Assembly (NCBI GenBank): GCA_032718475.1
Contig: JAUCBJ010007725.1
Location: 122,569 to 186,568 of the forward strand
Source of the DNA: Nemertoderma westbladi
Taxonomy: Eukaryota > Animalia > Xenacoelomorpha
DNA length: 64,000 bases
Reading direction: 5' to 3'
The notes beneath the pieces are model-generated. The model did not search any database and was not told the DNA's origin. It was given only the letters and a program-made list of their open reading frames with translations. A program made the position numbers and the translations under genes. This document shows, one piece after another, positions 6,482-53,810 of the stretch. Position 1 is the first letter of the stretch; each line of letters opens with the position of its first letter.

Positions 6482-6536
6482 CTGCAATAAAGAAAAGAAA
6501 AATATGACAAAACCTCAAATAATGTGACATAATGAC

Positions 6537-8544: not shown

Positions 8545-8964
8545 TCCACAGGGTGGGTGTCGCAATGGAGTCAGATATGAGGCCCATCACCCATATCTAC
8601 TCTGGCGTACATGACCCACCATTGGCTGTTGCAGCTCATCTGCTGGGTCATGCCCTGTACCCTTGCTGCCAGGTGCAGGTCGCAGTGAAGTGCCCTCAGA
8701 GTGGACATGAGAACACTCTACTCCTAACCAGCCATTGGTAGATCACCATCTGCCTGGTCAGGCCATATACCCCTGCAGCCAAGTATATGGGTCCTTAATC
8801 CAGGACCAAGGACGTCCTTATCCCAGAACGAAGGGGGTCCTAGTTACAGGACCAGATTTGCCCTAGTAAGAGGGTCTATGCAGCTACAGGTGGCACCTCC
8901 TTTATGCTGCATGGAGGTGGCAAGTTTTCTTGATCAATGACCTAGAATACCTGACCTGACCTTG
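7335..8964 (-). mobile_element. LINE (RTE-like) fragment: 5' UTR plus AP-endonuclease domain, 3' part missing
   Basis: Non-satellite block between satellite units, containing the APE ORF and about 400 nt upstream of it. Confidence 0.85.
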
Positions 8965-16493: not shown

Positions 16494-18410
16494 TAAATTG
16501 GAGAGATACGCCTATTCCTACTATCGGAAGAGACGGTAACAATACCTGCAATATCCTACTGTAAAGTTTGTAAATCAAATCATAAATCCGACCTTCTCAC
16601 CAAAACAGTAAACCCCAAGTAAGCGAATATATTGCAGTATCGATCTCTTTTAACCGGTGAGGCAGAAAACAGTCTACGAGCAGACAAACTTCGATAAAAC
16701 AAAATCCCGCGCAGCGAATCCTAAAATCAGGCTGACTCACTGACGGACTAAGGGGCTCGTATACTTTGCCGCGGTGTGATTTATATGGTTGGGCAAAAGG
16801 ACGCTAGCTAGGTATAGAGCAGATTTGGAGATGTCTAACTAGCGAGCAAAGTGCAGTAAGGACGAAAGTTAATTTTTATATATTTCGAGGTGTAAATAAT
16901 TTCTAACGCGCGTGTGTTAATTCTGAACGGTCAAAGCAGTTTTGCTCCTTCACATATATAATTACTGGGTACGGTGTGCATTTTACGAATATTCTAATTT
17001 TATAACTTGTAGGTCCAATACTCACGAATGATAAGGTTCCTTCCCCTCTTGCGTATTTCCAGGACTCAAATTCAGGCATAAGGTTAATACTACGCCCAGA
17101 ATTCGGCAATTTTAGGTACCAGGTCCCTAATACTGAGAAGAGATGTGTTAGTTTACTACTGTAGGCGTACGGGTACTAATAGCTATCCTGGCTCCTATCT
17201 AGAATTTTAGTCACCCAGGTAGTCCGGGTAACTTCCTATTAGGGCGTTGGCGGGGACACGGTAGATGTTAGTATATCCCTGATAGCCTCAATTTATTTGC
17301 GCCTAGCGTAAACTGCCCTACCGCCTGAACGGTACAATCCCAATTCAGGTGAAAACACAGCAACCCCCCTAGCCTACAAGTTCTGATGTAACGGACACCG
17401 TTGTACGGCAAATAGTCGCACACACACCTGTACTTAGCAAGAGTTAAGCGTACAGTTTGCTGCACCCTAACCAATGTGTATGCCTTGTACCGGTGTGCCT
17501 ACGTCCTATCTGCGTACTAGTATCTGCTCTCTCTCCCTCTCCCCCGTAGGAATATGAAGGTCTACTGCGGTTTTTTCCTGAATCAAGACAGTACAGTCCC
17601 TATGATGTAATTTTGGGCTCACAGCGTGTCACTACGTCTACCTTTGATCTTTTGGTCTTACACTTAGGTAGCAAGGATCGAACGCTGTCTAACCTTTCAG
17701 GCGATGGGCGAATAACTTTAAGATGGTATTGCGGGTTGTCTCTCGTTTACATTCCCGTGATGTTCCCGTTCATTGCTGCGGCCCGATCTCTAGCTGGCCA
17801 TCCTGTCCCTGAGTTTGTTCACCGTAGTGAAACCATATTAAAACAGATAGAAAGGCTGAGAGATGTGACTAGTATTTCTGACTTTATTACAAAACATATA
17901 ATAACTATTTATACAATAAACAATGTAATCTGAAATAAGACAGAAAGTGAATGATGGATTGAGATTAGTAAACTAATGAACGAAATCGCACCTTTATATA
18001 CCAAATTTGTGCCGCAATCAATCGAGAAAGTTCTCGATTGTTCTATGGGTTCTAACAAGGTTTTAAAGATAGCTTATTGGTCCAGCTAATATATAACTTG
18101 CACGACATTGGTTACAATCAAATAACTACAGCCTTATTGGTACAGACAAATGCAATTAATTTGTAGCGGTTAATTTAAATGAGTTGAAATTCTGCACAAA
18201 AAATAATTCGCACTTACTAGGATTCGAACTCGATACCTACTACACATATAATTTCCAACGCTCTACCAACTGAGCTACTGAACCACTTGACCGATAGATG
18301 CATAATAGATAGAACCAATACTAATGAGAACTCAAAGCAATCTTTACAAAGTTAATTCGAATAAAATAAAATTTTGAAAATCCACGGCATTTAGGGAATA
18401 TAATTCTATA
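16494..18410 (-). repeat. 3' LTR of BEL copy 1 (1917 bp)
   Basis: Matches 31118-33035; the only difference I saw is a 1-bp indel near 32290. Sense-strand termini TATAG...AATTTA. Confidence 0.95.
18198..18284 (-). promoter_or_regulatory. tRNA-derived Pol III cassette (A box, B box, oligo-T) in LTR U3; also at 32823-32909, ~40188-40274 and ~53597-53683
   Basis: Minus strand reads ggttcagTAGCTCAGTTGGTAGAGC...gaGTTCGAATCC...ttatttttt. The D-arm pairs; acceptor, anticodon and T stems do not. Confidence 0.75.
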
Positions 18411-19248
18411 CCGCTCCATGAAAACAGGATATTATCGTGCATAAAATATACGGTTTTCACCAATAATCAATCAAACTATAGAATACTTAGGGCGTACTTA
18501 CATATTTACAATTAAGTTTCAAACAATACTTCCTTTCTACGTAATGATTTGATACAAAAATAATTACAAATTCAAACTTTACGTATTTAAGGCTTTACTA
18601 AGTAAGTACAATATAAATCTAAATTAAATTCACCAATATAAATCTATTGCATCTCAATATTGCATAAATTCAAACAATTACAAATACAAATGAATGAAAA
18701 CAATAAGAAAGGCTCGCAAGTCTTCCATCTACTATTGTATCTCAAATACTGCATAAATTCAAGTAATTACAAATACTTTCGTACCTAAATGTAGATTGCA
18801 TAAGTTTTGGAATAATTACAAGTATGAGTCTTTCTGAGCACAAAATTTTCTGTCTATAAAACTTTCTCTTTTACACTGTAAATACAAATACTGCTTATAA
18901 AATATAGTATTCGAAACAATATAAATTGCATAAGTTCGAAATAATCACGTAAATATAAAATATAAATTCTTACTAAATATAAATCTTACTAAATATAAGT
19001 CTTTACTTAAATATAAATATAAACTGCATAAGTTTAGAATAATATAAACCTTTGCATCTCAAATATGAAACATAAATCTTTCAAATATAAGTTCCTTCTA
19101 AACTTTCTAAATTTCATAAATTCGGAACAATACAAATTGCATAAGTTTGGAATAAGCAAAAACTTTCTAAATATAAAACATATAATTCAAATAAATCACA
19201 AATCATAAGAAAGGCTCACGAGTCTTCCGTCCACCCTTGCCCTCCCTT

Positions 19249-20762
19249 TTATCGCTTAGTAGATCGAGCCCTGCCGCGTCCTCGAAAACTGCGCACAGGT
19301 GACTTTGCTCGCGATATGGGACTAATGGGGCGAGTCACTGGTTTACTTGGGACGTTGAGAGACGGTGCAACTATTTCCTCGCAAATTCGTCTATTTGGCA
19401 TCCCAAAACCTCGACCAATTCCTCGTGACCGATCAGTCGTCACTACAGTTGGTAGAACGTCTGGGAACGCGTGAGAAGCGGACGACGCAGACCCAAGAGT
19501 AGCTTGCGCCCCCTGTTGATCAGCTGGTGTATGTCCCGATCCTCCTACTGGTTCTCTTGGAAGTGATACCGTATCCCGAGTAACTCGAATAGTCGGCTCA
19601 ACTCCCTTGCGTTCTTCTACATTAATAATTTTCTTCAATTGTTGGCCCACTTTCTGGACCCGTATGATCCTACCCTGTCCGTCCTCCCGAGGGTGACGTG
19701 CAGACGGCGCAACCGGAGTGGCTGATATATTCGTCGCCTCTAGGACCTCTTCTTCCTCGAATACGCTCGCTCGTATACGTTTATGGTAAAACGCGGCTCG
19801 GTACGCCCATGCGACGGTTAACCAAGCTCCCTTGTTCCGCTTTTCAGTTCGGAAACGATCGAATTCACCATACGTGATACGATTAACGACTTTCTGAAAA
19901 TTCCACGTGTTTTGTTATCTGGGTGAATCTGTAACAGATACTCGCGCACCACTCGAAATCCGCTGTCGTGGGGCAAAATATCGACAACCTCGATAAGTTC
20001 GTCATACTGGGGCATAGCGGAGATATATCCTTCCGACATCATCGTTTGAGGATTTACCGCCCAAAATCCGAGATGCGCTCTCATCGGAAACCGTCTTCTT
20101 TGTGCTGATACATGTTCATCGGCTAAATCTTCCCACTCATCAAATAACTTCCTCACAAGTTTTACAGATTCGTGTTCATAAGGTATGTCCCTCAGTTGGC
20201 ATTCAGATGCTCGATGTCCCTTTATATTGCAGTAAGTACATTGAGCCATAAATCTCCAGCAAGTATAAAAGGTATGAGACCCTTGATCCCCACACCATCC
20301 ACAGATTAGCTGAGTCGTAGTAATGTGCCTTCCACTGCACTTTGCCAAATGATGTCCAGCGACGCCACATTTACTACACATCGTATTAGCAGGGTACCAC
20401 ACTCGTTCGTATATAAGATCTCCAATCGGTCGAGCGCTTCCTCCCATACTATAATCGTAATCATCTGGGTCTATGGGTTGGTAGGTTTCTGAAGGTTGTA
20501 TACAAACTATAGCATCTGTTGCTTCAAGTTGTCGAATCTCCGTCTGAGATTTCTTCGGGAGGTTCCTTTCTATCTCAAGAAGTTCCTCTAAAGGATCGTC
20601 GGCGATCGTAGTAGTTACTTCGAATTCATCACCAAGGTGACCGATAGGCGCGCGCGTCTGCCGTGATTCATCCGTAATCTCCACGATACGTTCTCCTTCA
20701 TAGGGTAACAATGTAAACATAGATGGTCTTTCGATAAGAGATCCCGCACAGCGAAGATACAC
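19249..20762 (-). pseudogene. Extra 3' ORF (three CCHC zinc knuckles) of BEL copy 1, split by a 1-bp indel near 19910
   Basis: Matches the intact 504-aa ORF of copy 2. A T4 run here (T5 in copy 2) splits it into 19818-20762 and 19249-19650. Confidence 0.8.
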
Positions 20763-21058
20763 GTCTCGAAATATACTAAATCCTGCTCGAGTAAAGGCAT
20801 TGCTGTCTTTGCGAGCTTCGCTGTACTTTCTGATAATTCCTTTATACCGAATATAGTATAATCCTTGGCTCCAAATCTTTCGAATGGCGCTGCTGCCTCC
20901 TCTTGGATATCATATCCCCATCTCGGCTCTCTTTGTATCCCTTTCTCCATAATTAGAGGTGTAGTTACATAATCATTACTACTAGAGGGAATACAACAGA
21001 GTTTGTGGTTAGTTGTGAGGAGACGTGAGAGTTTCGTCTGCCTTTTGGGCTTCGACAA
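20615..21058 (-). CDS. Short ORF overlapping the start of the zinc-knuckle ORF; unknown product
   Basis: Open in both copies (42570-43013 in copy 2). An internal ATG (MEKGIQ) would give about 110 aa. No recognisable domain. Confidence 0.4.
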   Translation of the reverse strand: MSKPKRQTKLSRLLTTNHKLCCIPSSSNDYVTTPLIMEKGIQREPRWGYDIQEEAAAPFERFGAKDYTIFGIKELSESTAKLAKTAMPLLEQDLVYFETCIFAVRDLLSKDHLCLHCYPMKENVSWRLRMNHGRRARLSVTLVMNSK

Positions 21059-21613: not shown

Positions 21614-24600
21614 TTATTTACTAGTATTAGGTGGAGATTTGTAGTCTCCAGACTCGTTACGAGTCTCTTCAAGAAGTACGAGACGTTGAGTCGGTCTGTC
21701 TACTGTACGACCGTCAATTGTCCGTACCGTCACAGTTCTTGTCACTCCATCCATAGATGGATGTGTGGCTAAAATGACACCTGTTATCCAGAAGCGTCTT
21801 TTTAGATTCACTTCTGCCAACAGCACGTGATCTCCCGGCTTTAATGCACGGGTGTTATTGTACCATGTTGTTCTGGCAGAAATAGAGGGCAAATAATGGT
21901 TTTGCCATATTTCCCAGAATTTGTTAGCTAGTAGTTGCGTGATTTTCCACGCTTTTCTACCATAGCTGTCGCTTTCTATTGGAATAGAAATCGGTGTCAA
22001 AGTCGTCGGTGCCTGCATTAGCAGGTGTGCCGGTGTCAAAGCAAACTGAGATTGTTTGTCATCGGGTACTAATACTATTGGTCTAGTATTTAGTATTGCC
22101 TCGATTTCAACAAACAATGTTGTCAGTTGGTCGTCTGTTAATATGTGGTTTACTGGAATGACCTTTGCCATGGCCGTTTTGATAGATCTAATCAATCTCT
22201 CCCAGACTCCGCCTCTCCAAGGACTATCTGGAGGATTAAACTTCCAAACAATCTTGTGAGGTTGCAGTTCGTTCGAGATTTGATCATGATCTAATTTCTT
22301 AAAGGCTCTAGCAATCTCATTCCGAGCACCAACAAAGTTTGTCCCTTGGTCTGAGTACAAGCATTTTACTAGTCCGCGTCTAGCGATAAATCGCCGCAGT
22401 GCTAGTATAAACGCGTTGGTGGAAAGATCCATCACACGTTCAATGTGAACTGCCCTACTGGACATACATGTGAAAATCAGTCCCCAGCGTTTTACTAGTA
22501 TACGTCCACGTTTCGTATGTATGGGACCAAAGCAATCAATTCCAGTCTCTGTAAAAGGTGGTCTGAATGCTTGAAGTCGTGCTTGTGGTAGCTCACTCAT
22601 TTCTTGGGTACCTATTTTAGAATGTACCTTTTTACAAATAATACACGTACGTGTCACTGAACTTAATGCTTTACTGGGTCTAATTAATACAAATCTAGTA
22701 CGTAAGTAGGAAAGACAGTGGTGTCTTCCAGCGTGTTTCAGATGTAAATGTGCGTCCAGTATCATTGCACGTTGTAGTTCGTGATGTTGCGGTATTATTA
22801 TTGGGTACCTAAAGTTCGTGTTAAAGTCAATGTTTTGAAGCCGAGATTTATGACAAATTAAGCCATTATAAATAATCGGACTCCAACTCAGTATCGGTGA
22901 CGACTTGATTGGTTGACCTTGATGTATAGATGTGAATTCGCGCGCGAAATATCGCAGTTGGTAATGGCGAATTAATTTAATCTCACACCTGTCAATCTCA
23001 GCCAATGTAAGTCGACGTGTGAAGTCACGTTTGCCTTTAACGTATTGTACAAAACGTACAATCCACGCTAATTTTCGGCAAGCGCTTGTCCAAGAATCTG
23101 TTAAGTTTACAATACGGTCGACGTAAGTATTTGTGACGTCATCAGGTAAGTCAATGGAGAACTTGGAAGGTTTTGAATTACTAGAAGGGCCCACGGGTCC
23201 GCCGGTAAGTATTCCCTTGTTGACTGTTGATCCGTCCGGGTCTACAAGTAATTTGTCCTTCTTTGTCTTCTTACCTTGATTGTCGGTACTTTGTAAGTCG
23301 ATCGTTAATGGTGGTTTGAACTCTATGGGGTCAGCAGGTTTCGGTAAACTTATTTTCCTGCCGGCATTAATCCCAGGTCTCACCATAGGTTGTAAGTTCG
23401 GTATGTCTCTTGAGCGCAAAGTAACACCTGTATTTACATTAGCGTAGGTACTACCCACATCTGCAATACATGAGGTTTCACCATGCTTATGGTTGCTCAA
23501 GTGTGTCAAAATTGGTAGTTTGTCAATACAAGGCCGCTCCAATAGGGAAACTGCGGCTTTATTGTTAGTCAATACATTACTAGTGTCTAGTCGACTGTCT
23601 AGTAATGTGTCTGGCGATACGTCTGGTAACGTATCTAGTTGTTTGTCAATAGAAGGCCGCTCCAATAGGGAAACTGCGGCTTTACTGTTTGTCAGTGCGT
23701 TACTAACGTCTGGTGGAACATTTTGTGATATGTCTGGCAAAATGTCTGGTTGACTGTCTAGTAACGTGTCTGGTTGACTGTCTAGTAACGTGTCTGGTTG
23801 ACCGTCTGGCGATATGTCTGGTCGACCGTCTGGCGATATGTCTGGTGTAGAAAGGCTCGCAAGTCTTCCTCTCTTGACCTTTGAAGTTATATCCTTCCAT
23901 TTCGCCTTCGGTTTTTTCTTGAGTTTCGCCGCTGTCGTCTTTTTCTTTGTCTTCCCCTTTTTTGGTTTCTTGATTTCGGCGTCCTTAGGAATGGTGTTGG
24001 ACTTGTTGTCGTATAACGGAGGCCAATCTTGTGTCGATTTCTGCAAGAACTGGGGTCCGTGTTGCCAAAACTCTTTGTTCTCCGGTTTACAGAATTCCTC
24101 AGGCATCATTCCTCGCGACGCAATATCAGCTGGGTTTTGTGGTCCGGGACAATGTCGCCAATCCTCTTTTATTGAACGGTCTAGAATTTCCGCGCGACGG
24201 TTAGCAACGAATGTCTTGAATTCGAGTGTGTCGTTGTTTATGTAAAATAAAACCAACGTCGCGTCAGTCCAATAAAATATCTGTAAACTCGACTGTAGTT
24301 CTGTCTGTATGAGGTTCACGATGGTGGTTGACAGGGTCGCGGCTTGTAGCTCGGCTCGTGGTGTCGTCATATACTTAGTAGGCATGGTCTTAGCCTTAGA
24401 AGTAATGAGCGAAACATCGAACTCGTCTGATTCCACTTGTCTGCGCAAATACGCTGCCACACCAAAACCGTTGTCACTGGCGTCAGAAAAACAGTGTAGT
24501 TCCAAGTTGTCAGGAAATGTACTCTGTAATGGAAAGTAAACCCTGGGTATGGAATAATCCTCTAACGAAGACAATTCCGCCTCCCAGGTCTTCCATAAGT

Positions 24601-27600
24601 CCACTTGATCTGATGAGATCGGCTCGTCCCACGTTAGTCCATCCTTCCATATACTGCGCATATAAATGCGAGCTTGCAGTATTACTGGACTGATGAATCC
24701 TAACAGATCGAACAATCGGCTCAACTTTGACAAGCATGATCTCTTCGTCAGTGTGTCTCCTTGACTGTCCAGTCTCACCTTCACTCGAAAGTTGTCTGTG
24801 TTTGGGTCCCAAAAGAGCCCCAACACCTTAGTCGTCGGTAGTGGTTCGAACTCTAGGTCTATATCACCACCTCCACGCTCAGTAGTTCCGAATGAGTCAA
24901 CTAATTCGGCACTGTTTGAGGCGAATTTGGTGAGGTTAAAACCTCCGCCCGCCAAGCAGTCCCGTAATTGATGTGCTACTGTTGTAGCACGTTCTACTGT
25001 GTCGCAACTTTGTAAACCGTCATCAACGTAAAAGTCACGTTCTACAATTCTAATTATCTCTGGGTCATACAGATGTTTCTGATCTCTAGCGGCTTGCTTC
25101 AAGGCGTACATCGTACAATTTGGGCTGTCTCTGGCACCGAAAACGCGAACTTGCATTTGGTAAGTCGCTGGTGGTAGACTTAAGTCCCCTTCCGGATACC
25201 AGAGAAACCGCAAACTGTCTCTGTCTCGCTCTAACGCTTTTACTTGGTGAAACATCGCTTCAACGTCGCAAGTAAAGGCTACTTGACGCTGACGGAAGCG
25301 CATAATCACCCCCATTAGATAATTATTCATGTTCGGTCCATCCATCAATTCACTATTGAGGGACATTCCCTCAAACAGAGCCGCACAGTCATTGACTACG
25401 CGTACTTTATCTGGTTTGTCGGGATGTCTCACATAGTGATGTGGCAGGTAGTATGTCTGGTCGGTCACTTGCTCCGGGTTAGTCATTCGGATAGCGTATC
25501 CCTTCGTCAAATACGTCTCCATCTGAGTGTTGTACTGCAGATGGGCTTTCTCGTCCTTTAATAGACGTTGCCGTATTGAGTGTAGACGTCTTAAAGCCAG
25601 TGGGTAGTTGTTTATAAGTTTAGGACTTTGGCTACGCCATAACATACCCACCTCGTAATGTCCGTCCTCCGTCTGTCGGATAGTATCCTCCATGATCTTC
25701 AGAGATTGTTTCTCCTGTTCCGACATACAAGGGTCGTAGCTACCAGGTTCAGCTGTATCTTGTTCTAACCACCTGATAGTCTTCTCCGTTAATTCTTTGT
25801 CCAAGGCGGCTTGTTCCAACTGATGAATTTTCAACGCGTCATCGTCGATATCGATGGGCACTGTTGAGGTTATTGGGGTAGGTAGACTCGCAAGCCTATC
25901 ATCTGTCGTCGATGGAATCTCTAGCTGATTCGTCTTCCCCCCAAGTTCTAAACTCACCTTGTGGGTTAGCTGCTCCTTGTGACTTATCATACTAGTTACA
26001 CGTCTGTCATGTTTTGTCGACTGTAGCGTAGTATGGTTCACGTCGTGTGAAAAGGAATGAATTGAGTTTGTAGTCAATAAACTACATGTACTCTGTACGT
26101 CGTCTTCCTCGTCACTTACGTCTAGTGTGCGCACAGGCGCTCGAGTATACCACCCTATCGGCGTTCTGCAGGCGTATGCGTTTCCTGCTACAACTGCCGA
26201 TGGTCTGGTTTCCCACACCTGATGTAGGTTGAATTGGTCCGTCCCGATCAGCATTGCTACCGATCTATAATTGACAGGACATTCGGGTACACCAAGGTGT
26301 CTGAAATACTTACGGTCCTCCAGAGATTGTTCCGGCACTGGACCTAGTAGGTTACTAAAGTCCTTCGTGGCCGCAAAGGTTAGATCTCTAAAGGGCAACA
26401 AAGACCTCTCCCTCTCGCTGTGTTGCGATTTTGGAAGAAGAGAGTCTAAGTCCAACTTAACTCGTGTCACTGGTATTGCACGCTGGCCGTGCATACTACT
26501 TACTGTATAACTGACGTGCTTACCTTGTCTAAGATCTGTTACGACGTCAGCTATCTTTTCATCTACGTAACTGTGAGATGAGGCTGAGTCTAGAATCGCG
26601 TAAATCCTCTTACTCCCTTTTGTGCCAGTAACTTTAATCGGGATTACACTGAATCCCTTCAGTTGGTCAGTGGTCAGGAGCGCGATTGACGGTTGTTCGT
26701 CTCCATTTGAATATTCGTCGTCGTCTGATTCTTCGTCCGACGATCCGGATTGTTCTGAAAAGCAATCCTCTATATGGGTCACGAAAGTCGGAGTCGTTTT
26801 CGATTCTCGTTTTCGGTAAGCCGCATCACATCTCGCTGCTGCTTCCGGGTGTTCCCTGGCGAAGCGTTTCGTCGGCGTGTGGCTGTCTGTGTGGAGCAGA
26901 CCGTCGTGGTTGCGTCCACAGGATGGACAAGTGTCGGTATTTGGGCAATCCTTACGGACGTGTCCGTGTCGCGTACACCGCCAACAAGAGTCCAGTGGCC
27001 GTATCTGCAGCCGTCGTTCTTCTGAGTTCAACTCGCGAAATTGTCGACAACCTCGTAACTTGTGACCAATATACCGCTTACCCAAATGTTCGCAGTATTG
27101 GCAGCCGTTGAAGTCGGCGCTGAGTTGCTGTCTCGTCTGTTTCGTTCCAATGGGCGCAGATACTCTATTACCGTCTGAGAATTGTCGTGATTCCGTCGGT
27201 GTGGCGTAAGTGGCCGTCTTTGTGGATGTTGTCTGGGGTTTTTGTCGGTTGGAGGATGGCAGTGTGATCCCTTCTGCCACGATGTGCTGGTCGGTATAGT
27301 TAGATCGAGTTTCTACTACCGCCTCCCTGGATATTAAAAGGTACACATCTTCTAATTTTAGGAATCCTCCTCGCTCCTCTCGCTGGTATTCGACCTTCCT
27401 CCACTCCCGACGAAGTCGATGGTGGAGTCGTCCTATTATCTTTAATAGGACTGTAGGCGTATTCCCGTAATCAAGTTGTCCAATTGATCTTAAGGTAGTG
27501 ATAGCGTTCTTAATCTCGTCAGCCAGTTTTAGTAAGTCGACGGGTTTAGTGATAGCCCCTCCCTTACAGAGTTCTTCTATTACTGACCTGGCCATACTCA

Positions 27601-30309
27601 CTGTACCTCCGTATATCGAAGTCAAACGATCGTACGCTAGTTCGAAAGCGTCTGGTACACCGACGAAAGTCTCCGCCAAACGTTTAGGTTCTCCTGACAA
27701 CGTTTGGAGCAAGTAATTGAACTTCTCTCGTGATGTAAAGGCGCACACGGCGATCTGGGATTCGATATAGTCTACGAAGGTATGCCAGTGTTTTGAGCTA
27801 CCGGAGAACTTCGGTGGTTGTTGTACCGGCAATCCCTGTCTGGCTGCGAATTTCGCTATCTCCTCGGCAACGTTCAGAGTTTCGCGTCCTTGGTTGGTAA
27901 CCTGGTTGATGTTCTCCCTTCTGGCGCTTTTCCCTGATACGATGCGGGGTTTGAAGGTACCGGTCTTTGTGGTGCCTTCGGGTGTCTATTGTGTTCGAAT
28001 TCGGTGTTCCTCGAACTATCGGTTTGAACTTCCTCCAGACGCTCCTCGATCTGAGCCAACTTGTTGACAACTGGTCGCAGAATGTCGGCGAACTGTTGTG
28101 TACTAATTGCGTCCGTTGGTTGTAACGCCTTCTGTGTTGGTGTATTCTGTGGAGGATTGTCTGCAAAGGAGTTGTCTGAACGCTCGCGTTTATATTCATC
28201 GGCCGCCCCTGTTCTAAATACCTCGCGTTTCGGGTAATCCGATTCGCTCGAAGTACTACTATCATCTGGATATGGTGGTCGACGTGCTCGCGTCCGTTGC
28301 GTCGTTCGAATTCTAACGGCTCGTTTCGGAACATCGTCCACTGTTCTTCGTTGTTCGGTAGGCTCACAAGTCTTCCTCGAAGTCGTAGATTGCGATGTAA
28401 ACTGAACCGGTCGCGTATCCACTGTTCTCCGTTGTTCGGTAGGCTCACAAGTCTTCCTCGAAGTCGTAGATTGCGATGTAAACTGAACCGGTGGTCGGAC
28501 GACCGCGTTTGAATCCAAAGGCCTTGTAGGCCGAAATGTCATTGGGTATTCGTAGTGCGTAACGGGTTTAGGTGTCAAAGGTGGACTCACCTGTTTTGTC
28601 GTCAGTAGTGCAGGTCCGACTAATAAACTACTACGATCTGTAATCGGTGGGTTACTTACCTTGACTTTCGGAATGGGCGACGACGTTGCTCTTGGCGGTA
28701 TAAACTCGTCCGGAATAACAAACCTGTGTTCCGTCGCACCATGGATAGGAGAAATATCACTGCTACCCGCAATCGAAACAGGTTCCTTAGTCGTAACCGG
28801 TGCAAACATATGAGTTACCTGTGGGAATCGTTGACACACGTCTTTTACTAATTGTCGTTCCCGTCCGGGTGCTCCTACGCTTCCTTCCTTCTTCCGTTCC
28901 TGAATTTGGCGATGTCTTACCTCTAACTGGTCCAAATCATGTCCGTCACGAGATCTCATCGATCGATCGCGGGCCTTTTGATCCAGATCTTCCTCAGCGT
29001 TCGCTAATTCTCTCGCCTTCTTCTCAAGTTCGAAATGAAGTTTAGCTGTCTTCTCTCGTTGTTCCGTTTGTCGTTGTTGCGCCTCAAATTCTGCTTGTCG
29101 TATGGCGGATTGAGCTTTTATTTGCCGTGTTTTCATTTCGGCCCGTGCTTCCGAAACTAACCTGTCTCGTTCTAATTCCGCCGCTGCCGCTGCCGCTTGT
29201 CGCTCTGACTCGGCCGCTGCCGCTGCCGCTTGTCGCTCTGACTCAGCCGCTGCCGCTGCCGCTGCCGCTTGTCGCTCTAACTCAGCCGCTGCCGCTGCCG
29301 CTTGTCGGGCAATGTCCCGCTCTAACCTTTCTACTTCAGCTGCTTCTAATTCAGCTTGTTCCTGTAGATGAGAGATTCTCGCTATATTCGCAACGCGTAG
29401 CTTCTCTTCCTCTACTGCTGCCTGCATCACTAGAAGTTGAGCTTGTTCCTCCATTTCTCGTCGTTGTCGGCAGAATTCTTGCTGTTGTCGAGCAACTTCT
29501 GACGTGACCATACTTCCCTCGCAGATTTCGCTACGAATACTTACCAGCGATTGATTTAGTATTCCCGGAGCTGATTCGATTTGTGCGAGCGAAGTTTCCC
29601 TCGTAGCCTCCGGCACGGTTTCCCAATCCCCGACGTCTTCGCCGCACATGCGCAAGTGATCCGTCAGGTGTTTCAATTGTCCATCCAGTCGGTACAGTTC
29701 CTGTTCTTCCTCGGGTTGTAATAATTCGTCCGAAACTGACTCACCTAACAACTGGTCCGCTTGTTCCTGTTGTATCTGTCTAATCGTCGACTTAAACTGA
29801 ATCAGTTTCTCTCTAGTGATCATTAGTTTCTCTAGGATTCTAAGTTGAGTATCCATGTCCTGTCTCTGTCTAGCTAGATCTTGTAGGCCAACTAGATTAT
29901 CTACGGACTTATATACTTTACTCTGTACTCTAACCTGGAGGGTGTAGAACTCGAATCGAGACATCGGAGCGGTCAACCCGTCTAATATGCGTTGGCCTTC
30001 TCCAATACTCCTGGTTATATGCGCCATGTAACCTCCGACGCTTCTAACCACACTTTCTGTGCTTCCTGCTGAACTTACCAATTCCGTTTCCCTATATCTA
30101 GGTTGCGGAACAGTTAGAAAGTCCTCGGTCCTGCCGTCGCCTCGTACTACGGCATCCGGTACTCCCGTTGGATGTACTGGTGACGCACACGGTGTAGGTT
30201 CGGTAGGCTCGCGAGTCTTCCCCTGTGGTTCTTCCGCTGCTGACTTATCCGCGTCACATGAGTCATAGTCGGTTTGTGTGTTCTTCGTATAGTCTTGTTT
30301 GTCACTCAT
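21614..30309 (-). CDS. BEL/Pao Gag-Pol polyprotein of copy 1 (about 2,900 aa once a 1-bp deletion near 27921 is corrected)
   Basis: Coiled coil; DUF1759-like PPKFSG...EKFNYL; three BEL knuckles (CQYC..H..C, CWRCTRHGHVRKDC, CPSCGRNHDGLLH); protease AILDSASS; RT YVDD; RNase H FSDAS; integrase H..H..CIIC, GIDCFGP, SDQGTNF, GGVWER. Copy 2 reads through the 27921 position in frame. Confidence 0.93.
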
Positions 30310-31106
30310 TTCGGTAGTTGTAAGTCAAGTAAAGTGAGTGTCAAAGTATCGAGTTTACCGTATTTGTATAAAACGGTACTAATTACAGTCATATAAAATT
30401 AGCCTACCGGCCGATTTTATAGCAGATGGATAAAATTAGCCTAAAACGGCCAATTTTACAGCAAATAAATGTCACGGAATAAGTATATAATAAAATTAGC
30501 CTAGCGGCCAATTTTACAACAAATAAATCGGATAACGATATGCGTTATCAAAAGGTAAATTAAATACAATAATACGGACTAATTCAGCAATGAACAAAGA
30601 AATCGTACGGAATGCATAAATACTTGAGACAGTGGAACCCACAATAATTTTAGCTAATACGGTAATGCCTAACTTATTTATGCAACTTTTCGAACTCACC
30701 CACTCCAATAATTCTCCAGAAAAACAGATTCCCAGATACAAACCGAACGTGAACCTTTCCGTTTTTAACGTTGCGGACGAAACGCGATTTTCCCAACCAA
30801 AGTTGTTGAGTTATCTATCTCCCAAACTTGCTAAACACGGTCTTGCTCCCGTTACAGTCTAGAAATGAGTTCTGAATCCTGAAAAACAAAAGAGTTAGGT
30901 TTTACTTTACGAAAATTTTGTACCGGTACAATATGGTATTTAAACCCTTTTAAACACCGGTATTCAATTCCAAAAATATTTTACACGCGGTTCAAATCAA
31001 ATTTTATTTCAAAAAATTAGCACTTAGCTAATCAAATATAAATTTTTACCTCAAAATACAAAATTTTCAAATAACTTTAGTCCTACCGAACCGTAGTTCA
31101 GTAAAA

Positions 31107-31117
31107 CATATTCCTAC
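31107..31117 (-). promoter_or_regulatory. Putative PBS GTAGGAATATG (non-tRNA type), copy 1
   Basis: Directly abuts the 5' LTR, lacks TGG, and is exactly complementary on the sense RNA to LTR positions 32170-32180. Confidence 0.7.
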
Positions 31118-33035
31118 TAAATTGGAGAGATACGCCTATTCCTACTATCGGAAGAGACGGTAACAATACCTGCAATATCCTACTGTAAAGTTTGTAAATC
31201 AAATCATAAATCCGACCTTCTCACCAAAACAGTAAACCCCAAGTAAGCGAATATATTGCAGTATCGATCTCTTTTAACCGGTGAGGCAGAAAACAGTCTA
31301 CGAGCAGACAAACTTCGATAAAACAAAATCCCGCGCAGCGAATCCTAAAATCAGGCTGACTCACTGACGGACTAAGGGGCTCGTATACTTTGCCGCGGTG
31401 TGATTTATATGGTTGGGCAAAAGGACGCTAGCTAGGTATAGAGCAGATTTGGAGATGTCTAACTAGCGAGCAAAGTGCAGTAAGGACGAAAGTTAATTTT
31501 TATATATTTCGAGGTGTAAATAATTTCTAACGCGCGTGTGTTAATTCTGAACGGTCAAAGCAGTTTTGCTCCTTCACATATATAATTACTGGGTACGGTG
31601 TGCATTTTACGAATATTCTAATTTTATAACTTGTAGGTCCAATACTCACGAATGATAAGGTTCCTTCCCCTCTTGCGTATTTCCAGGACTCAAATTCAGG
31701 CATAAGGTTAATACTACGCCCAGAATTCGGCAATTTTAGGTACCAGGTCCCTAATACTGAGAAGAGATGTGTTAGTTTACTACTGTAGGCGTACGGGTAC
31801 TAATAGCTATCCTGGCTCCTATCTAGAATTTTAGTCACCCAGGTAGTCCGGGTAACTTCCTATTAGGGCGTTGGCGGGGACACGGTAGATGTTAGTATAT
31901 CCCTGATAGCCTCAATTTATTTGCGCCTAGCGTAAACTGCCCTACCGCCTGAACGGTACAATCCCAATTCAGGTGAAAACACAGCAACCCCCCTAGCCTA
32001 CAAGTTCTGATGTAACGGACACCGTTGTACGGCAAATAGTCGCACACACACCTGTACTTAGCAAGAGTTAAGCGTACAGTTTGCTGCACCCTAACCAATG
32101 TGTATGCCTTGTACCGGTGTGCCTACGTCCTATCTGCGTACTAGTATCTGCTCTCTCTCCCTCTCCCCCGTAGGAATATGAAGGTCTACTGCGGTTTTTT
32201 CCTGAATCAAGACAGTACAGTCCCTATGATGTAATTTTGGGCTCACAGCGTGTCACTACGTCTACCTTTGATCTTTTGGTCTTACACTTAAGGTAGCAAG
32301 GATCGAACGCTGTCTAACCTTTCAGGCGATGGGCGAATAACTTTAAGATGGTATTGCGGGTTGTCTCTCGTTTACATTCCCGTGATGTTCCCGTTCATTG
32401 CTGCGGCCCGATCTCTAGCTGGCCATCCTGTCCCTGAGTTTGTTCACCGTAGTGAAACCATATTAAAACAGATAGAAAGGCTGAGAGATGTGACTAGTAT
32501 TTCTGACTTTATTACAAAACATATAATAACTATTTATACAATAAACAATGTAATCTGAAATAAGACAGAAAGTGAATGATGGATTGAGATTAGTAAACTA
32601 ATGAACGAAATCGCACCTTTATATACCAAATTTGTGCCGCAATCAATCGAGAAAGTTCTCGATTGTTCTATGGGTTCTAACAAGGTTTTAAAGATAGCTT
32701 ATTGGTCCAGCTAATATATAACTTGCACGACATTGGTTACAATCAAATAACTACAGCCTTATTGGTACAGACAAATGCAATTAATTTGTAGCGGTTAATT
32801 TAAATGAGTTGAAATTCTGCACAAAAAATAATTCGCACTTACTAGGATTCGAACTCGATACCTACTACACATATAATTTCCAACGCTCTACCAACTGAGC
32901 TACTGAACCACTTGACCGATAGATGCATAATAGATAGAACCAATACTAATGAGAACTCAAAGCAATCTTTACAAAGTTAATTCGAATAAAATAAAATTTT
33001 GAAAATCCACGGCATTTAGGGAATATAATTCTATA
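31118..33035 (-). repeat. 5' LTR of BEL copy 1 (1918 bp)
   Basis: Direct repeat of 16494-18410. Confidence 0.95.
32616..32765 (-). promoter_or_regulatory. LTR Pol II promoter: three CCAAT boxes about 30 bp apart plus TATATAAA
   Basis: Plus-strand attgg x3 (18076, 18107, 18136 in the 3' LTR) and cctttatata (17991-18000; 32616-32625). Present in all four LTRs. Confidence 0.65.
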
Positions 33036-36000
33036 GTACTAAATAAAATATAGTTCGCCTTAGTTTTACTAAATAAAATATAGTTCGTCGTAGTTGTACT
33101 TAATAAAATATAGTTCGCCTTAGTTGTAATAAATAAAATATAGTTCGCCTTAGTTGTAATAAATAAAATATAGTTCGCCTTAGTTTTACTAAATAAAATA
33201 TAGTTCGCCTTAGTTGTACTTAATAAAATATAGTTCGCCTTAGTTGTACTTAATAAAATATAGTTCGCCTTAGTTGTAATAAATAAAATATAGTTCGCCT
33301 TAGTTTTACTAAATAAAATATAGTTCGCCTTAGTTGTACTAAATAAAATATAGTTCGCCTTAGTTGTAATAAATAAAATATAGTTCGCCTTAGTTGTAAT
33401 AAATAAAATATAGTTCGCCGTAGTTTTACTAAATAAAATATAGTTCGCCTTAGTTTTACTAAATAAAATATAGTTCGCCTTAGTTGTAATAAATAAAATA
33501 TAGTTCGCCTTAGTTGTACTAAATAAAATATAGTTCGCCTTAGTTGTAATAAATAAAATAAAGTTCGCCTTAGTTGTACTAAATAAAATATAGTTCGCCT
33601 TAGTTGTAATAAATAAAATATAGTTCGCCTTAGTTGTACTAAATAAAATATAGTTCGCCGTAGTTGTACTTAATAAAATATAGTTCGCCTTAGTTGTACT
33701 AAATAAAATATAGTTCGCCGTAGTTGTACTTAATAAAATATAGTTCGTCGTAGTTGTACTAAATAAAATATAGTTCGCCTTAGTTTTACTAAATAAAATA
33801 TAGTTCGCCTTAGTTGTACTTAATAAAATATAGTTCGCCTTAGTTGTAATAAATAAAATATAGTTCGCCTTAGTTGTAATAAATAAAATATAGTTCGCCT
33901 TAGTTTTACTAAAGAAAATATAGTTCGCCTTAGTTGTACTTAATAAAATATAGTTCGCCTTAGTTGTAATACTTAATAAAATATAGTTCGTCGTAGTTGT
34001 ACTAAATAAAATATAGTTCGCCTTAGTTTTACTAAATAAAATATAGTTCGCCTTAGTTGTACTTAATAAAATATAGTTCGCCTTAGTTGTAATAAATAAA
34101 ATATAGTTCGCCTTAGTTGTAATAAATAAAATATAGTTCGCCTTAGTTTTACTAAAGAAAATATAGTTCGCCTTAGTTGTACTTAATAAAATATAGTTCG
34201 CCTTAGTTGTAATAAATAAAATATAGTTCGCCTTAGTTTTACTAAATTAAATATAGTTCGCCTTAGTTGTAATAAATAAAATATAGTTCGCCTTAGTTGT
34301 AATAAATAAAATATAGTTCGCCTTAGTTGTAATAAATAAAATATAGTTCGCCTTAGTTTTACTAAATAAAATATAGTTCGCCGTAGTTTTACTAAATAAA
34401 ATATAGTTCGCCTTAGTTTTACTAAATAAAATATAGTTCGCCTTAGTTGTACTAAATAAAATATAGTTCGCCTTAGTTGTACTAAATAAAATATAGTTCG
34501 CCTTAGTTGTAATAAATAAAATATAGTTCGCCTTAGTTGTACTAAATAAAATATAGTTCGCCGTAGTTGTACTAAATAAAATATAGTTCGCCGTAGTTGT
34601 ACTTAATAAAATATAGTTCGTCGTAGTTGTACTAAATAAAATATAGTTCGCCTTAGTTTTACTAAATAAAATATAGTTCGCCTTAGTTGTACTTAATAAA
34701 ATATAGTTCGCCTTAGTTGTAATAAATAAAATATAGTTCGCCTTAGTTGTAATAAATAAAATATAGTTCGCCTTAGTTTTACTAAATAAAATATAGTTCG
34801 CCTTAGTTGTACTTAATAAAATATAGTTCGCCTTAGTTGTAATAAATAAAATATAGTTCGCCTTAGTTGTACTAAATAAAATATAGTTCGCCGTAGTTGT
34901 ACTTAATAAAATATAGTTCGCCTTAGTTGTAATAAATAAAATATAGTTCGCCTTAGTTGTAATAAATAAAATATAGTTCGCCTTAGTTGTACTAAATAAA
35001 ATATAGTTCGCCTTAGTTGTAATAAATAAAATAAAGTTCGCCTTAGTTGTACTAAATAAAATATAGTTCGCCTTAGTTGTAATAAATAAAATATAGTTCG
35101 CCTTAGTTGTACTAAATAAAATATAGTTCGCCGTAGTTGTACTTAATAAAATATAGTTCGCCTTAGTTGTACTAAATAAAATATAGTTCGCCGTAGTTGT
35201 ACTTAATAAAATATAGTTCGTCGTAGTTGTACTAAATAAAATATAGTTCGCCTTAGTTTTACTAAATAAAATATAGTTCGCCTTAGTTGTACTTAATAAA
35301 ATATAGTTCGCCTTAGTTGTAATAAATAAAATATAGTTCGCCTTAGTTGTAATAAATAAAATATAGTTCGCCTTAGTTTTACTAAATAAAATATAGTTCG
35401 CCTTAGTTGTACTTAATAAAATATAGTTCGCCTTAGTTGTACTTAATAAAATATAGTTCGCCTTAGTTGTAATAAATAAAATATAGTTCGCCTTAGTTTT
35501 ACTAAATAAAATATAGTTCGCCTTAGTTGTACTAAATAAAATATAGTTCGCCTTAGTTGTAATAAATAAAATATAGTTCGCCTTAGTTGTAATAAATAAA
35601 ATATAGTTCGCCGTAGTTTTACTAAATAAAATATAGTTCGCCTTAGTTGTACTAAATAAAATATAGTTCGCCTTAGTTGTACTAAATAAAATATAGTTCG
35701 CCTTAGTTGTACTAAATAAAATATAGTTCGTCTTAGTTGTACTAAATAAAATATAGTTCGCCGTAGTTGTACTTAATAAAATATAGTTCGTCGTAGTTGT
35801 ACTAAATAAAATATAGTTCGCCGTAGTTGTACTAAATAAAATATAGTTCGCCTTAGTTTTACTAAATAAAATATAGTTCGCCTTAGTTGTACTTAATAAA
35901 ATATAGTTCGCCTTAGTTGTAATAAATAAAATATAGTTCGCCTTAGTTGTAATAAATAAAATATAGTTCGCCTTAGTTTTACTAAATAAAATATAGTTCG

Positions 36001-38494: not shown

Positions 38495-40401
38495 TATTGG
38501 AAGAGACGGTAACAATACCTGCAATATCCTACTGTAAAGTTTGTAAATCAAATCATAAATCCGACCTTCTCACCAAAACAGTAAACTCTAAGTAAGCGAA
38601 TATATTGCAGTATCGATCTCTTATAACCGGTGAGGCAGAAAACAGTCTACGAGCAGACAAACTTCGATAAAACAAATCCCGCGCAGCGAATCCTAAAATC
38701 AGGCTGACTCACTGACGGACTAAGGGCTCGTATACTTTGCCGCGGTGTGATTTATATGGTTGGGCGAAGAGACGCTAGCTAGGTACAGGCAGAGATTTGG
38801 AGATGTCTAACTAGCGGGCAAAGCACAGTACGGACAAAGTTAATTTTATATATTTCGAGGTGTAAATAATTTCTAACGCGCGTGTTAATTCTGAACGGTC
38901 AAAACAGTTTTTGCTCCTTCACATATATAATTACTGGGTACGGTGTGCATTTACGAATATTCTAATTTTGTAACTTGTAGGTCCAATACTCACGAATGAT
39001 AAGGTTCCTTCCCCTCTTGCGTATTTCCAGGACTCAAATTCAGGCATAAGGTTAATACTACGCCCAGAATTCGGCAATTTTAGGTACCAGGTCCCTGATA
39101 CTAAGAAGAGATGTGTTAGTTTACTACTGTAGGCGTACAGGTACTAATAGCTATCCTGGCTCCTATCTAGAATTTTAGTCACCCAGGTAGTCCGGGTAAC
39201 TTCCTATTAGGGCGTTGGCGGGGACACGGTAGATGTTAGTATATCCCTGATAGCCTCAATTTATTTGCGCCTAGTGTAAACTGCCCTACCGCCTGAACGG
39301 TACAATCCCAATTCAGGTGAAAACACAGCAACCCCCTAACCTACAAGTTCTGATGTAATGGACACTGTCGTACTGCAAATAGTCGCACACACACCTGTAC
39401 TTAGCAAGAGTTAAGCGTACAGTTTGCTGCACCCTAACCAATGTGTATGCCTTGTACCGGTGTGCCTACGTCCTATCTGCGTACTAGTATCTGCCTGCGC
39501 TCTCTCTCCCCCCCCCCCGTAGGAATGTGAAGGTCTACTGTGGGTTTTCCTGAATCAAGACAGTACAGTCCCTATGATGTAATTTTGGGCTTACAGCGTG
39601 TCACTACGTCTACCTTTTGATCTTTTGGTCTTACACTTAGGTAGCAAGGATCGAACGCTGTCTAACCTTTCAGGCGATGGGCGAATAACTCTAGATGGTA
39701 TTGCGGGTCGTCTCTCGTCTACATTCCCGTGATGTTCCCGTTCATTGCTGCGGCCCGATCTCTAGCCGGCCATCCTGTCCCTGAGTTTGTTCACCGTAGT
39801 GAATCCATGGTAAAACAGATAGAAAAGCTGAGAGAATATTCTGACTTTATTACAGAAGATACAATTATAATACAATGTAATCTGAGAATAAACTAAGCAC
39901 GACAGAATATTGACAAGATAATGATATAGGATATTGTATAAGAAGTTTGTGTAAGTGTGATAACTAATGAACGAAATCGCACCTTTATATACTAAATTTG
40001 TGCCGCAATCAATCGAGAAAATTCTCGATTGTTCTATGGGTTCTAACAAGGTTTTAAAGATAGCTATTGGTCCAGCTAATATATAACTTGCACGACATTG
40101 GTTACAATCAAATAACTACAGCCTCATTGGTACAGACAAATGCAATTAATTTGTAGCGGTTAATTTAAATGAGTTGAAATTCTACACAAAAAATAATTCG
40201 CACTTACTAGGATTTGAACTCAATACCTACTACACATATAATTTCCAACGCTCTACCAACTGAGCTACTGAACCACTTGACCGATAGATGTACAAATGAT
40301 AGAACCAATACGAATGAGAACTCAAGGCAATCTTTACAAAGTTAATTCGAATAAAAATAAAATTTTGAAAATCCACGGCATTTAGGGAATATAATTCTAT
40401 A
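38495..40401 (-). repeat. 3' LTR of BEL copy 2 (1907 bp)
   Basis: Near-identical to 51902-53810, differing in poly-C length and a few substitutions. Sense-strand termini TATAG...CCAATA. Confidence 0.95.
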
Positions 40402-42717: not shown

Positions 42718-43565
42718 GTCTCGAAATATGCTAAATCCTGCTCGAGTAAAGGCATTGCTGTCTTTGCGAGCTTCGCTGTACTTTCTGATAATTCCTTTAT
42801 ACCAAATATAGTGTAGTCTTTTGCTCCAAATCGTTCGAATGAAGCTGCCGCTTCCTCTTGGATATCATATCCCCATCTCGGCTCTCCTTGTATCCCTTTC
42901 TCCATAATTAGAGGTGTAGTTACATAATCATTACTACTAGAGGGAATACAACAGAGTTTGTGGTTAGTTGTGAGGAGACGTGAGAGTTTCGTCTGCCTTT
43001 TGGGCTTCGACAACGCTCTAACCTCCTACCCATAGCCTAAGATCTAGGGTTTCTTTAATGACACGCTGCTTCTTATCTAAAATTTTTTGCCGAAGTAAAA
43101 ACGAATTTGGGCTAAACTGGCCGTGAGTCTAAAATACTCACTTTTTGATCCCAAACTATTATCAGAAAATAAGCAGTCAAGAATTAGTAATAAATATAGG
43201 GGAGTCTATTTGACGTAACTTATTGAAACAAGACCGTGTAAAATTTAATTAAAATTTTAAGAAAGGCTCGCAAGTCTTCCTCTCTTGTTTCTCTAATTTT
43301 AAGTTCCACCCGACTGTACCCTGAAATCTATTCACTGGAGAAAATTTTTAAAAATTTTTCAAATCCAAATGGATTGTCTAAAATTTCGAAAATGTCTCAA
43401 TATTGTGAGTTCCAAGTAGAATTCCATTTCTTATACCTACAAATCCCGCTCCTATGTGACACATAAGGGTACTACCCTCAATGTTCACATATAAAGACAA
43501 TGGAATTCTACCGCTGTCCTTACTACGGTGTACAGGTACGTGGAAATCTATTTTTAAACTCCTAA

Positions 43566-51890: not shown

Positions 51891-51901
51891 CACATTCCTA
51901 C
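51891..51901 (-). promoter_or_regulatory. Putative PBS GTAGGAATGTG (non-tRNA type), copy 2
   Basis: Abuts the 5' LTR and is complementary to LTR positions 52928-52938. Confidence 0.7.
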
Positions 51902-53810
51902 TATTGGAAGAGACGGTAACAATACCTGCAATATCCTACTGTAAAGTTTGTAAATCAAATCATAAATCCGACCTTCTCACCAAAACAGTAAACTCTAAGT
52001 AAGCGAATATATTGCAGTATCGATCTCTTATAACCGGTGAGGCAGAAAACAGTCTACGAGCAGACAAACTTCGATAAAACAAATCCCGCGCAGCGAATCC
52101 TAAAATCAGGCTGACTCACTGACGGACTAAGGGCTCGTATACTTTGCCGCGGTGTGATTTATATGGTTGGGCGAAGAGACGCTAGCTAGGTACAGGCAGA
52201 GATTTGGAGATGTCTAACTAGCGGGCAAAGCACAGTACGGACAAAGTTAATTTTATATATTTCGAGGTGTAAATAATTTCTAACGCGCGTGTTAATTCTG
52301 AACGGTCAAAACAGTTTTTGCTCCTTCACATATATAATTACTGGGTACGGTGTGCATTTACGAATATTCTAATTTTGTAACTTGTAGGTCCAATACTCAC
52401 GAATGATAAGGTTCCTTCCCCTCTTGCGTATTTCCAGGACTCAAATTCAGGCATAAGGTTAATACTACGCCCAGAATTCGGCAATTTTAGGTACCAGGTC
52501 CCTGATACTAAGAAGAGATGTGTTAGTTTACTACTGTAGGCGTACAGGTACTAATAGCTATCCTGGCTCCTATCTAGAATTTTAGTCACCCAGGTAGTCC
52601 GGGTAACTTCCTATTAGGGCGTTGGCGGGGACACGGTAGATGTTAGTATATCCCTGATAGCCTCAATTTATTTGCGCCTAGTGTAAACTGCCCTACCGCC
52701 TGAACGGTACAATCCCAATTCAGGTGAAAACACAGCAACCCCCTAACCTACAAGTTCTGATGTAATGGACACTGTCGTACTGCAAATAGTCGCAAACACA
52801 CCTGTACTTAGCAAGAGTTAAGCGTACAGTTTGCTGCACCCTAACCAATGTGTATGCCTTGTACCGGTGTGCCTACGTCCTATCTGCGTACTAGTATCTG
52901 CCTGCGCTCTCTCTCCCCCCCCCCCCCGTAGGAATGTGAAGGTCTACTGTGGGTTTTCCTGAATCAAGACAGTACAGTCCCTATGATGTAATTTTGGGCT
53001 TACAGCGTGTCACTACGTCTACCTTTTGATCTTTTGGTCTTACACTTAGGTAGCAAGGATCGAACGCTGTCTAACCTTTCAGGCGATGGGCGAATAACTC
53101 TAGATGGTATTGCGGGTCGTCTCTCGTCTACATTCCCGTGATGTTCCCGTTCATTGCTGCGGCCCGATCTCTAGCCGGCCATCCTGTCCCTGAGTTTGTT
53201 CACCGTAGTGAATCCATGGTAAAACAGATAGAAAAGCTGAGAGAATATTCTGACTTTATTACAGAAGATACAATTATAATACAATGTAATCTGAGAATAA
53301 ACTAAGCACGACAGAATATTGACAAGATAATGATATAGGATATTGTATAAGAAGTTTGTGTAAGTGTGATAACTAATGAACGAAATCGCACCTTTATATA
53401 CTAAATTTGTGCCGCAATCAATCGAGAAAATTCTCGATTGTTCTATAGATTCTAACAAGGTTTTAAAGATAGCTATTGGTCCAGCTAATATATAACTTGC
53501 ACGACATTGGTTACAATCAAATAACTACAGCCTCATTGGTACAGACAAATGCAATTAATTTGTAGCGGTTAATTTAAATGAGTTGAAATTCTACACAAAA
53601 AATAATTCGCACTTACTAGGATTTGAACTCAATACCTACTACACATATAATTTCCAACGCTCTACCAACTGAGCTACTGAACCACTTGACCGATAGATGT
53701 ACAAATGATAGAACCAATACGAATGAGAACTCAAGGCAATCTTTACAAAGTTAATTCGAATAAAAATAAAATTTTGAAAATCCACGGCATTTAGGGAATA
53801 TAATTCTATA
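51902..53810 (-). repeat. 5' LTR of BEL copy 2 (1909 bp)
   Basis: Direct repeat of 38495-40401. Confidence 0.95.

Follow-up and report, generated by a model that had tools for sequence, protein, structure and literature searches.

The window, by which we mean the whole 64,000-nucleotide stretch of Nemertoderma westbladi DNA analysed here, contains two complete BEL/Pao retrotransposons on its minus strand, E1 (33035-16494, 16,542 bp) and E2 (53810-38495, 15,316 bp), which were delimited by self-comparison with tandem repeats masked (Table 1). In both elements the two LTRs are more than 99.7% identical, and because each shows few differences between its own LTRs (one indel in E1, five differences in E2), both elements are young. 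Target-site duplications of 5 bp, AGTAC for E1 and AAGGC for E2, establish 31118 and 51902, respectively, as the LTR ends. The LTRs have TA...TA termini, and both the polypurine tract (PPT) and the site at which the primer binds (PBS) abut their LTR with a spacer of 0. An alternative delimitation, with a TG...CA LTR followed by a 3-5-nt spacer, was rejected because the target duplications contradict it. TA ends that directly abut the PPT and the PBS (33035/31118 and 53810/51902) suggest integration without end trimming. The two elements share the same orientation and lie within one 30-bp satellite array (8965-16498, 33036-38494 and 53811-61630), a location that possibly reflects targeted insertion or survival in heterochromatin.

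The long E1 ORF matches the Pfam profiles DUF1759 (PF03564, E 6e-11), Peptidase_A17 (PF05380, E 1e-40), Integrase_H2C2 (PF17921) and DUF5641 (PF18701, E 2e-20). RVT_1 scores just E 0.22, and the acidic motifs of reverse transcriptase (RT) and RNase H are present by eye. No Pfam match was obtained for the 816-aa ORF. The gag region of E1 consists of two overlapping ORFs (near 27900), and the corresponding part of E2 (47320-50500) is in four pieces, with a gag region shorter than that of E1. The extra ORF that follows pol carries three zinc-knuckle-like motifs (zf-CCHC E 0.002 in E1, below the cut-off), is kept in both elements (19818-20909 and 41203-42864) and occupies the place where some BEL/Pao elements carry env. 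When the RT-RNase H region was compared with 5283 candidate proteins, 678 matched at E<=1e-20; identity reached 40-44% in the best of them, and most of the nearest named proteins belonged to molluscs, sea urchins and corals. No relatives were found in viral contigs.

Table 1. Features of E1 and E2 in the 64,000-nucleotide window
Feature	Position	Strand	Basis or remark
E1 5' LTR, 1918 bp, TA...TA ends	31118..33035	-	self-comparison, target duplication
E1 3' LTR	16494..18410	-	self-comparison, target duplication
E2 5' LTR, 1909 bp	51902..53810	-	self-comparison, target duplication
E2 3' LTR	38495..40401	-	five differences from E2 5' LTR
E1 polypurine tract, abuts 3' LTR, no spacer	18411..18417	-	
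E1 816-aa ORF, N-terminal gag region	27874..30324	-	overlaps next ORF
E1 2123-aa ORF: DUF1759, protease, RT (YVDD), Peptidase_A17/RNase H, integrase, DUF5641	21614..27985	-	
E1 extra 363-aa ORF downstream of pol, zinc-knuckle motifs	19818..20909	-	
E1 LTR 28-nt extension: former PBS and new LTR end	31118..31145	-	absent from E2
E1 PBS, 11 nt, no spacer, not TGG	31107..31117	-	
E1 11-mer complementary to PBS, candidate self-primer	32170..32180	-	
E2 PBS, variant at base 9	51891..51901	-	
E2 complementary 11-mer, variant at base 3	52928..52938	-	
G/A tract after predicted cut, predicted to pair with LTR end	32151..32169	-	
Pyrimidine run at LTR end, partner of G/A tract	31124..31130	-	
Predicted 11-12-bp hairpin abutting PBS	31080..31107	-	
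TATA box, 444 nt upstream of 11-mer	32617..32625	-	motif match only
CCAAT boxes	32765, 32736, 32705	-	motif match only
Proximal AATAAA, upstream of 11-mer	32508..32513	-	3' LTR copy 17888-17883
Distal AATAAA, 249 nt downstream of 11-mer	31916..31921	-	3' LTR copy 17297-17292
Candidate 84-nt GT-AG intron, ends 21 nt before 11-mer	32202..32285	-	motifs

We assign E1 and E2 to BEL/Pao (Belpaoviridae) on the basis of their predicted proteins. The domain order PR-RT-RH-IN, the two LTRs, the PPT and the 5-bp target duplication agree with the ICTV description of the family (PMC8742986). In that description the PBS is 18 nt long and serves tRNA-Arg or tRNA-Gly, LTRs range from 0.2 to 1.2 kb and genomes from 4.2 to 10 kb, and replication is termed poorly understood. 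Here, by contrast, the PBS is an 11-nt, non-tRNA site, the LTRs measure 1.9 kb and the elements 15-16.5 kb; in neither copy does the TGG expected of a tRNA 3'-end PBS follow the LTR. With Pao-type predicted domains and no chromodomain among the Pfam matches of E1, the elements are not members of the Tf1/sushi group.

In place of a tRNA complement, each PBS has an exact 11-nt complement within the LTR. The preliminary description placed these sites correctly, at 31117-31107 and 32180-32170 in E1 and at 51901-51891 and 52938-52928 in E2, and the concerted change that it noted is real: base 3 of the LTR 11-mer is T in E1 (32178) and C in E2 (52936), and base 9 of the PBS is A (31109) and G (51893) on the minus strand. 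Each 11-mer is also found in the 3' LTR of its own element (17556 in E1, 39529 in E2). Chance would give 0.0006 exact 11-nt matches per LTR at offset 0, and when offsets of 0-5 were allowed, 11 nt were reached in 6/500 and 3/500 dinucleotide shuffles. E1 and E2 differ at 13/786 leader sites and 38/1316 LTR sites; once one base of the 11-mer has changed, its partner would change to match with a probability near this per-site divergence, 1.7-2.9%. By themselves, the two copies on which the covariation rests provide modest evidence, with p about 0.01 for the match and 0.02 for the compensating change. Furthermore, the concerted change alone is not proof of templating, since a U-G intermediate permits the same change in a structural helix.

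Logan contigs from four runs reveal that the family is present in high copy number. The E2 allele of the LTR 11-mer accounts for 11% of the depth in run X1, 13% of that in X3 and 94% of that in X4 (21, 16 and 1 contigs, respectively); the window may itself derive from one of these runs. Both alleles are real family variants. In X4, one 701-nt contig (31289-31990) carries 90 differences, and the run has 97 places at which T is replaced by C on the plus strand, that is, A by G in the sense of the element, a pattern that ADAR hyperediting would produce. Another X4 contig skips 95 nt (32195/32291), overlapping the candidate intron at 32285-32202, and could represent a copy that has lost it.

The boundary of the E1 LTR has moved. 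The end of the E2 LTR aligns with 31146 of E1, and the 28-nt extension beyond this point is present in both E1 LTRs (3' LTR copy 16521-16494). It consists, in order, of an old PBS (31145-31135), 10/11 bases of which are identical to the present E1 PBS, a second pyrimidine run and the new TA end. The simplest reading is that an end-plus-PBS unit was duplicated, the downstream copy then being used for the start and the upstream copy becoming U5. The moved end in both E1 LTRs would mean that the fully matching site is where minus-strand synthesis begins; it speaks to the place of the start and not to the identity of the primer. The locus can be seen as two natural experiments, one being the paired alleles in two young copies and the other the joint shift of an LTR end and its PBS.

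Relatives were collected by aligning the RT-RNase H region with 30 of 120 listed homologues and retrieving 80 of 540 matching metagenome stretches, among which 27 contained a long-range direct repeat, 20 were inspected and 13 had both LTR ends; the relatives used share about 40% RT identity. The LTR end of L022 coincides with the contig end and was confirmed by L033, and L063 was dropped because its repeat is not an LTR. Among the 13 with both ends known, 11 lack TGG, and all 11 of these have a 10-15-nt self-complement 0-4 nt after the LTR, matched by at most 5/200 shuffles. Three of the self-complements are contiguous and eight are split by an intron of 67-164 nt with canonical GT-AG ends. 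The two TGG relatives (L066, L036) have a self-complement of just 4 nt. At single-LTR loci, where the LTR end was chosen by eye after viewing the sequence, 11/17 give a self-complement of 10-12 nt. The misses are L062 (6 nt at the chosen end), L003 (7 nt, in an LTR truncated by the contig start), L070, and another three loci with only 16-37 nt of LTR (L065, L037 and L023, the last with TGG). The 22 positives are non-independent, amounting to 16 different PBS sequences, and nearly all of their candidate primers end in AC or AT, as in E1 and E2. A scan of 29 further upstream regions, carried out with no null, gave plausible 11-15-nt split matches in six (L010, L057, L069, L076, L024 and L016); most of the others hold no LTR sequence. 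Scan rows for L035 and L027 were discarded as end-of-region artefacts and that for L063 as not at a PBS; the L072 match is probably a local hairpin. In the E1/E2 family itself a splice-junction primer was rejected, as the best split match is 9 nt vs 11 contiguous.

A quick midpoint-rooted tree was built from 79 of 82 segments, L071, L077 and L080 being left out as too short. Self-matching elements labelled in the tree fall within a 57-row group (SH-aLRT 99), and the three TGG elements lie in a separate 10-row group; the 'tRNA?' label of L065 is a guess. E1 and E2 lie outside the 57-row group on a branch of 1.69, weakly placed (80) beside L069 and L076, and L010 and L057, also self-matching, are near them. 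The predicted self-match signature is found on both sides of the tree; given the long branch and weak placement of E1/E2, the layout of the relatives need not apply to them. One well-supported subclade (L058, L062, L052 and L054) mixes contiguous candidate primers with one apparently intron-split by eye (L062), which suggests intron gain or loss within the primer. The LTRs of L001 and L015 also end in TA, yet a 3-4-nt spacer is retained.

These data bear on two explanations in which the element RNA is not the primer. A chance match in a long LTR might be entertained, as an 11-nt match near the end of a 1.9-kb LTR arises in about 1% of shuffles and the scan covers many elements, but the zero offset, the compensating change, the predicted flanking helix and the same pattern in 11/11 non-TGG relatives make this extremely unlikely. 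Alternatively, a host RNA such as a tRNA fragment or small RNA could prime, with the LTR-PBS helix only regulating access, translation or polyadenylation; structural covariation by way of U-G could then arise with no templating, and copia-type elements use tRNA halves, according to the accessible part of PMC6317226. Against this, each of 16 different PBS sequences has its match of about 11 nt in the LTR of its own element, in register with the end of that LTR and in many cases only after splicing, tRNA-type relatives have no such match, and each family would need a different host RNA. We regard priming by a host RNA as improbable. No tRNAs were found in the 64-kb window by ARAGORN, and Rfam gave just two chance-level matches in 30300-33040, with no ribozyme or tRNA family at the predicted cut site or in U3. 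By eye, U3 contains tRNA-like A and B box motifs (32905-32835) that neither ARAGORN nor Rfam called, possibly a captured SINE piece. Collectively, our results suggest that self-priming, as proposed in the preliminary description, is the best reading, for which the relatives give much stronger support than E1 and E2 by themselves; all self-priming routes taken together, the family probably primes minus-strand synthesis from its own RNA.

In Tf1/Tf2, Tj1, Tosmo and the Tf1/sushi elements, a PBS of about 11 nt is complementary to LTR RNA, and Tf1 requires a 'pretzel' fold of three duplexes in which the PBS is flanked by a helix on either side, as set out in the accessible parts of 10.1101/2022.12.06.519325 and PMC4600332. 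When the two regions of E1 or E2 were folded as a dimer, the prediction contained a central duplex, a helix formed by the G/A tract and a hairpin directly after the PBS. Flanking duplexes on both PBS sides are thus predicted in both copies, the downstream one being a local hairpin, not an LTR-leader duplex; the sole difference between the copies in its stem keeps a pair (G-U vs A-U). That the G/A tract can pair with the pyrimidine run near the end of the LTR, another proposal of the preliminary description, is likewise predicted, shuffles being as stable in 2/1000 (E1) and 52/1000 (E2) cases. Extended pairing between the leader and the sequence upstream of the 11-mer was rejected, as shuffles did as well (199/1000 and 428/1000). 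When the 5' region was folded from the TATA-predicted start, the probability of the 11-bp duplex was 0 in E1 and 0.15 in E2, and it was about 1 when the fold began at the 11-mer, although folds of 1.1-1.5 kb are unreliable and give weak evidence either way.

Motifs point to a start upstream, while predicted folding points to a start at the 11-mer. The latter would be the situation of Tf1 itself, with an RNA whose TATA-less promoter places its start at the 11-mer or immediately beside it and with the upstream TATA and AATAAA belonging to another transcript or being relics. Such a start would account for the high duplex probability, for pairing that ends at 11 nt with a hairpin abutting the duplex, and for the failure of the sequence upstream of the 11-mer to outdo shuffles in leader pairing; it would also remove the problem of the proximal AATAAA. 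It fits the layout of L076, where by eye a TATA lies 31 nt before the first base of the candidate primer. By eye, however, there is no promoter motif near 32210, E1 and E2 have both retained the TATA and the three CCAAT boxes of 32625-32765, and the candidate intron just upstream of the 11-mer would require a longer RNA. We consider a start at the 11-mer rather unlikely. Among the relatives, L077, L079 and L046 have a TATA-like box 132-143 nt upstream of the candidate primer, and L043 has one at -67; that of L077 is absent from its close relative L071. The layouts of L077, L079 and L046 lean to an internal primer and that of L076 leans to a terminal one.

The position of the poly(A) site matters as well. 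It had been argued that polyadenylation at the AATAAA near 17883 would leave no R overlap downstream of the 11-mer. This hexamer exists, but the objection is weakened by a second one at 17297, which the preliminary description did not mention and which lies downstream of the 11-mer; both hexamers are kept in E2. If the proximal signal were used, the 11-mer would lie in U5, and a second, cut RNA or a short transcript would have to prime an uncut template in trans. The textbook spacing of about 110 nt between TATA and proximal AATAAA speaks for such an arrangement, as does the more U-rich sequence that by eye follows this signal. On the other hand, two identical RNAs would have to be treated unequally, and in 16/22 relatives the candidate primer is followed, 9-98 nt downstream, by a poly(A) hexamer, with none found in 5/22 and the primer downstream of all hexamers in only 1/22. 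We judge priming in trans to be very unlikely, and by analogy with the relatives the distal signal is probably the one used. Hexamers on both sides of the candidate primer, as in E1 and E2, are also present in L080 and L046. No canonical donor was found that would splice the proximal AATAAA out of an RNA starting near 32600. The interval from TATA box to proximal AATAAA (32484-32627) is highly variable between copies, with few contigs placeable there; it has two acceptor-like sites and no canonical donor.

We slightly favour a route in which the primer is internal to the RNA and is cut just after the LTR 11-mer. The PBS abuts the LTR end and is complementary to 32180-32170, with which it would form an 11-bp duplex flanked by the G/A-tract helix and the leader hairpin, a predicted fold resembling the three-duplex structure of Tf1. 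Transcription would start near 32600, which places the 11-mer within R, about 420 nt from the cap. By analogy with Tf1, where RNase H is reportedly the cutting enzyme, the RT/RNase H of the element would cut between 32170 and 32169, leaving a 3'-OH from which RT would copy from 31118 to the cut. Also by analogy with Tf1, the 5' copy of R is favoured over the 3' copy as the primer donor. Because this internal-primer route requires the 11-mer to be inside R, polyadenylation would have to occur at the distal signal (17297) instead of the proximal signal, and the product would jump to the 3' LTR through the resulting overlap of about 270 nt. The primer would finally be copied into the new PBS, keeping the two sites in step. 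The U-rich context of the proximal AATAAA, the low duplex probability from the TATA start and the L076 layout stand against this route.

There is an even chance, in our estimate, that a large animal BEL/Pao branch including the E1/E2 family has dropped tRNA priming and is primed by an internal, cut piece of its own RNA. In that case, the piece would here lie several hundred bases away from the cap, and in many relatives it would be put together by host splicing, and the LTR end would follow the pairing. Such priming would resemble that of Tf1/sushi elements in the PBS of about 11 nt downstream of the 5' LTR, complementary to LTR RNA, and in the predicted three-duplex fold, as far as the accessible parts of the Tf1 sources describe them. 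It would differ in the internal primer, in the TA ends with no spacer and in the spliced primers of relatives. Moreover, the Tf1/sushi elements are Ty3/gypsy chromoviruses, whereas the domains here are of BEL/Pao type, and self-priming of Tf1 was shown by experiment, whereas that of E1/E2 is read from sequence alone. Cer7 of C. elegans, a BEL-like element, is said to have been proposed to supply its own primer, reportedly a tRNA-like sequence in its internal region; the self-supplied primer is alike, and the primer here would be a piece of the LTR.

The accessible part of PMC6317226 predicts self-priming for the Tcn1 clade and for the TAR lineage of plant Ty1/copia (Houba, Osr-1) from a complement of at least 10 nt starting 0-5 nt after the LTR, a complement that E1 and E2 also have; there, the elements are plant elements or belong to other superfamilies, and the self-priming is prediction only. 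The main text of a BEL/Pao survey (PMC3118150) makes no mention of primer, PBS or tRNA, the primers of the Sinbad paper (PMC554778) are PCR primers only, and the word primer is absent from PMC6238403. Self-priming of BEL/Pao is absent from the accessible parts of PMC6317226, PMC3601003, PMC5443660, PMC5445492 and PMC2656454 and is not described in those of PMC13524379, PMC5006619 and PMC8220671. A literature search for BEL/Pao, splice-junction or Cer self-priming yielded no paper; GyDB or Repbase notes, supplements and the full ICTV report may record it.

BEL/Pao is one of three large groups of LTR retrotransposons in animals, and if much of it self-primes, it would be a third superfamily in which self-priming has arisen or survived. 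The proposal that priming by a hairpin came before priming by tRNA, put forward in the accessible part of PMC3601003, would become testable across superfamilies. An internal or spliced primer would imply an RNA cut and a connection with splicing not described for Tf1, and such priming would also account for the failure of PBS-based finders to detect these elements.

Elsewhere in the window, by eye, we noted a LINE-type endonuclease fragment (7312-8586, minus strand), the start of another retroelement (61630-64000, plus strand) and a GPCR-like exon (6140-6520, minus strand). A 55/114-bp tandem array occupies 2479-3987.
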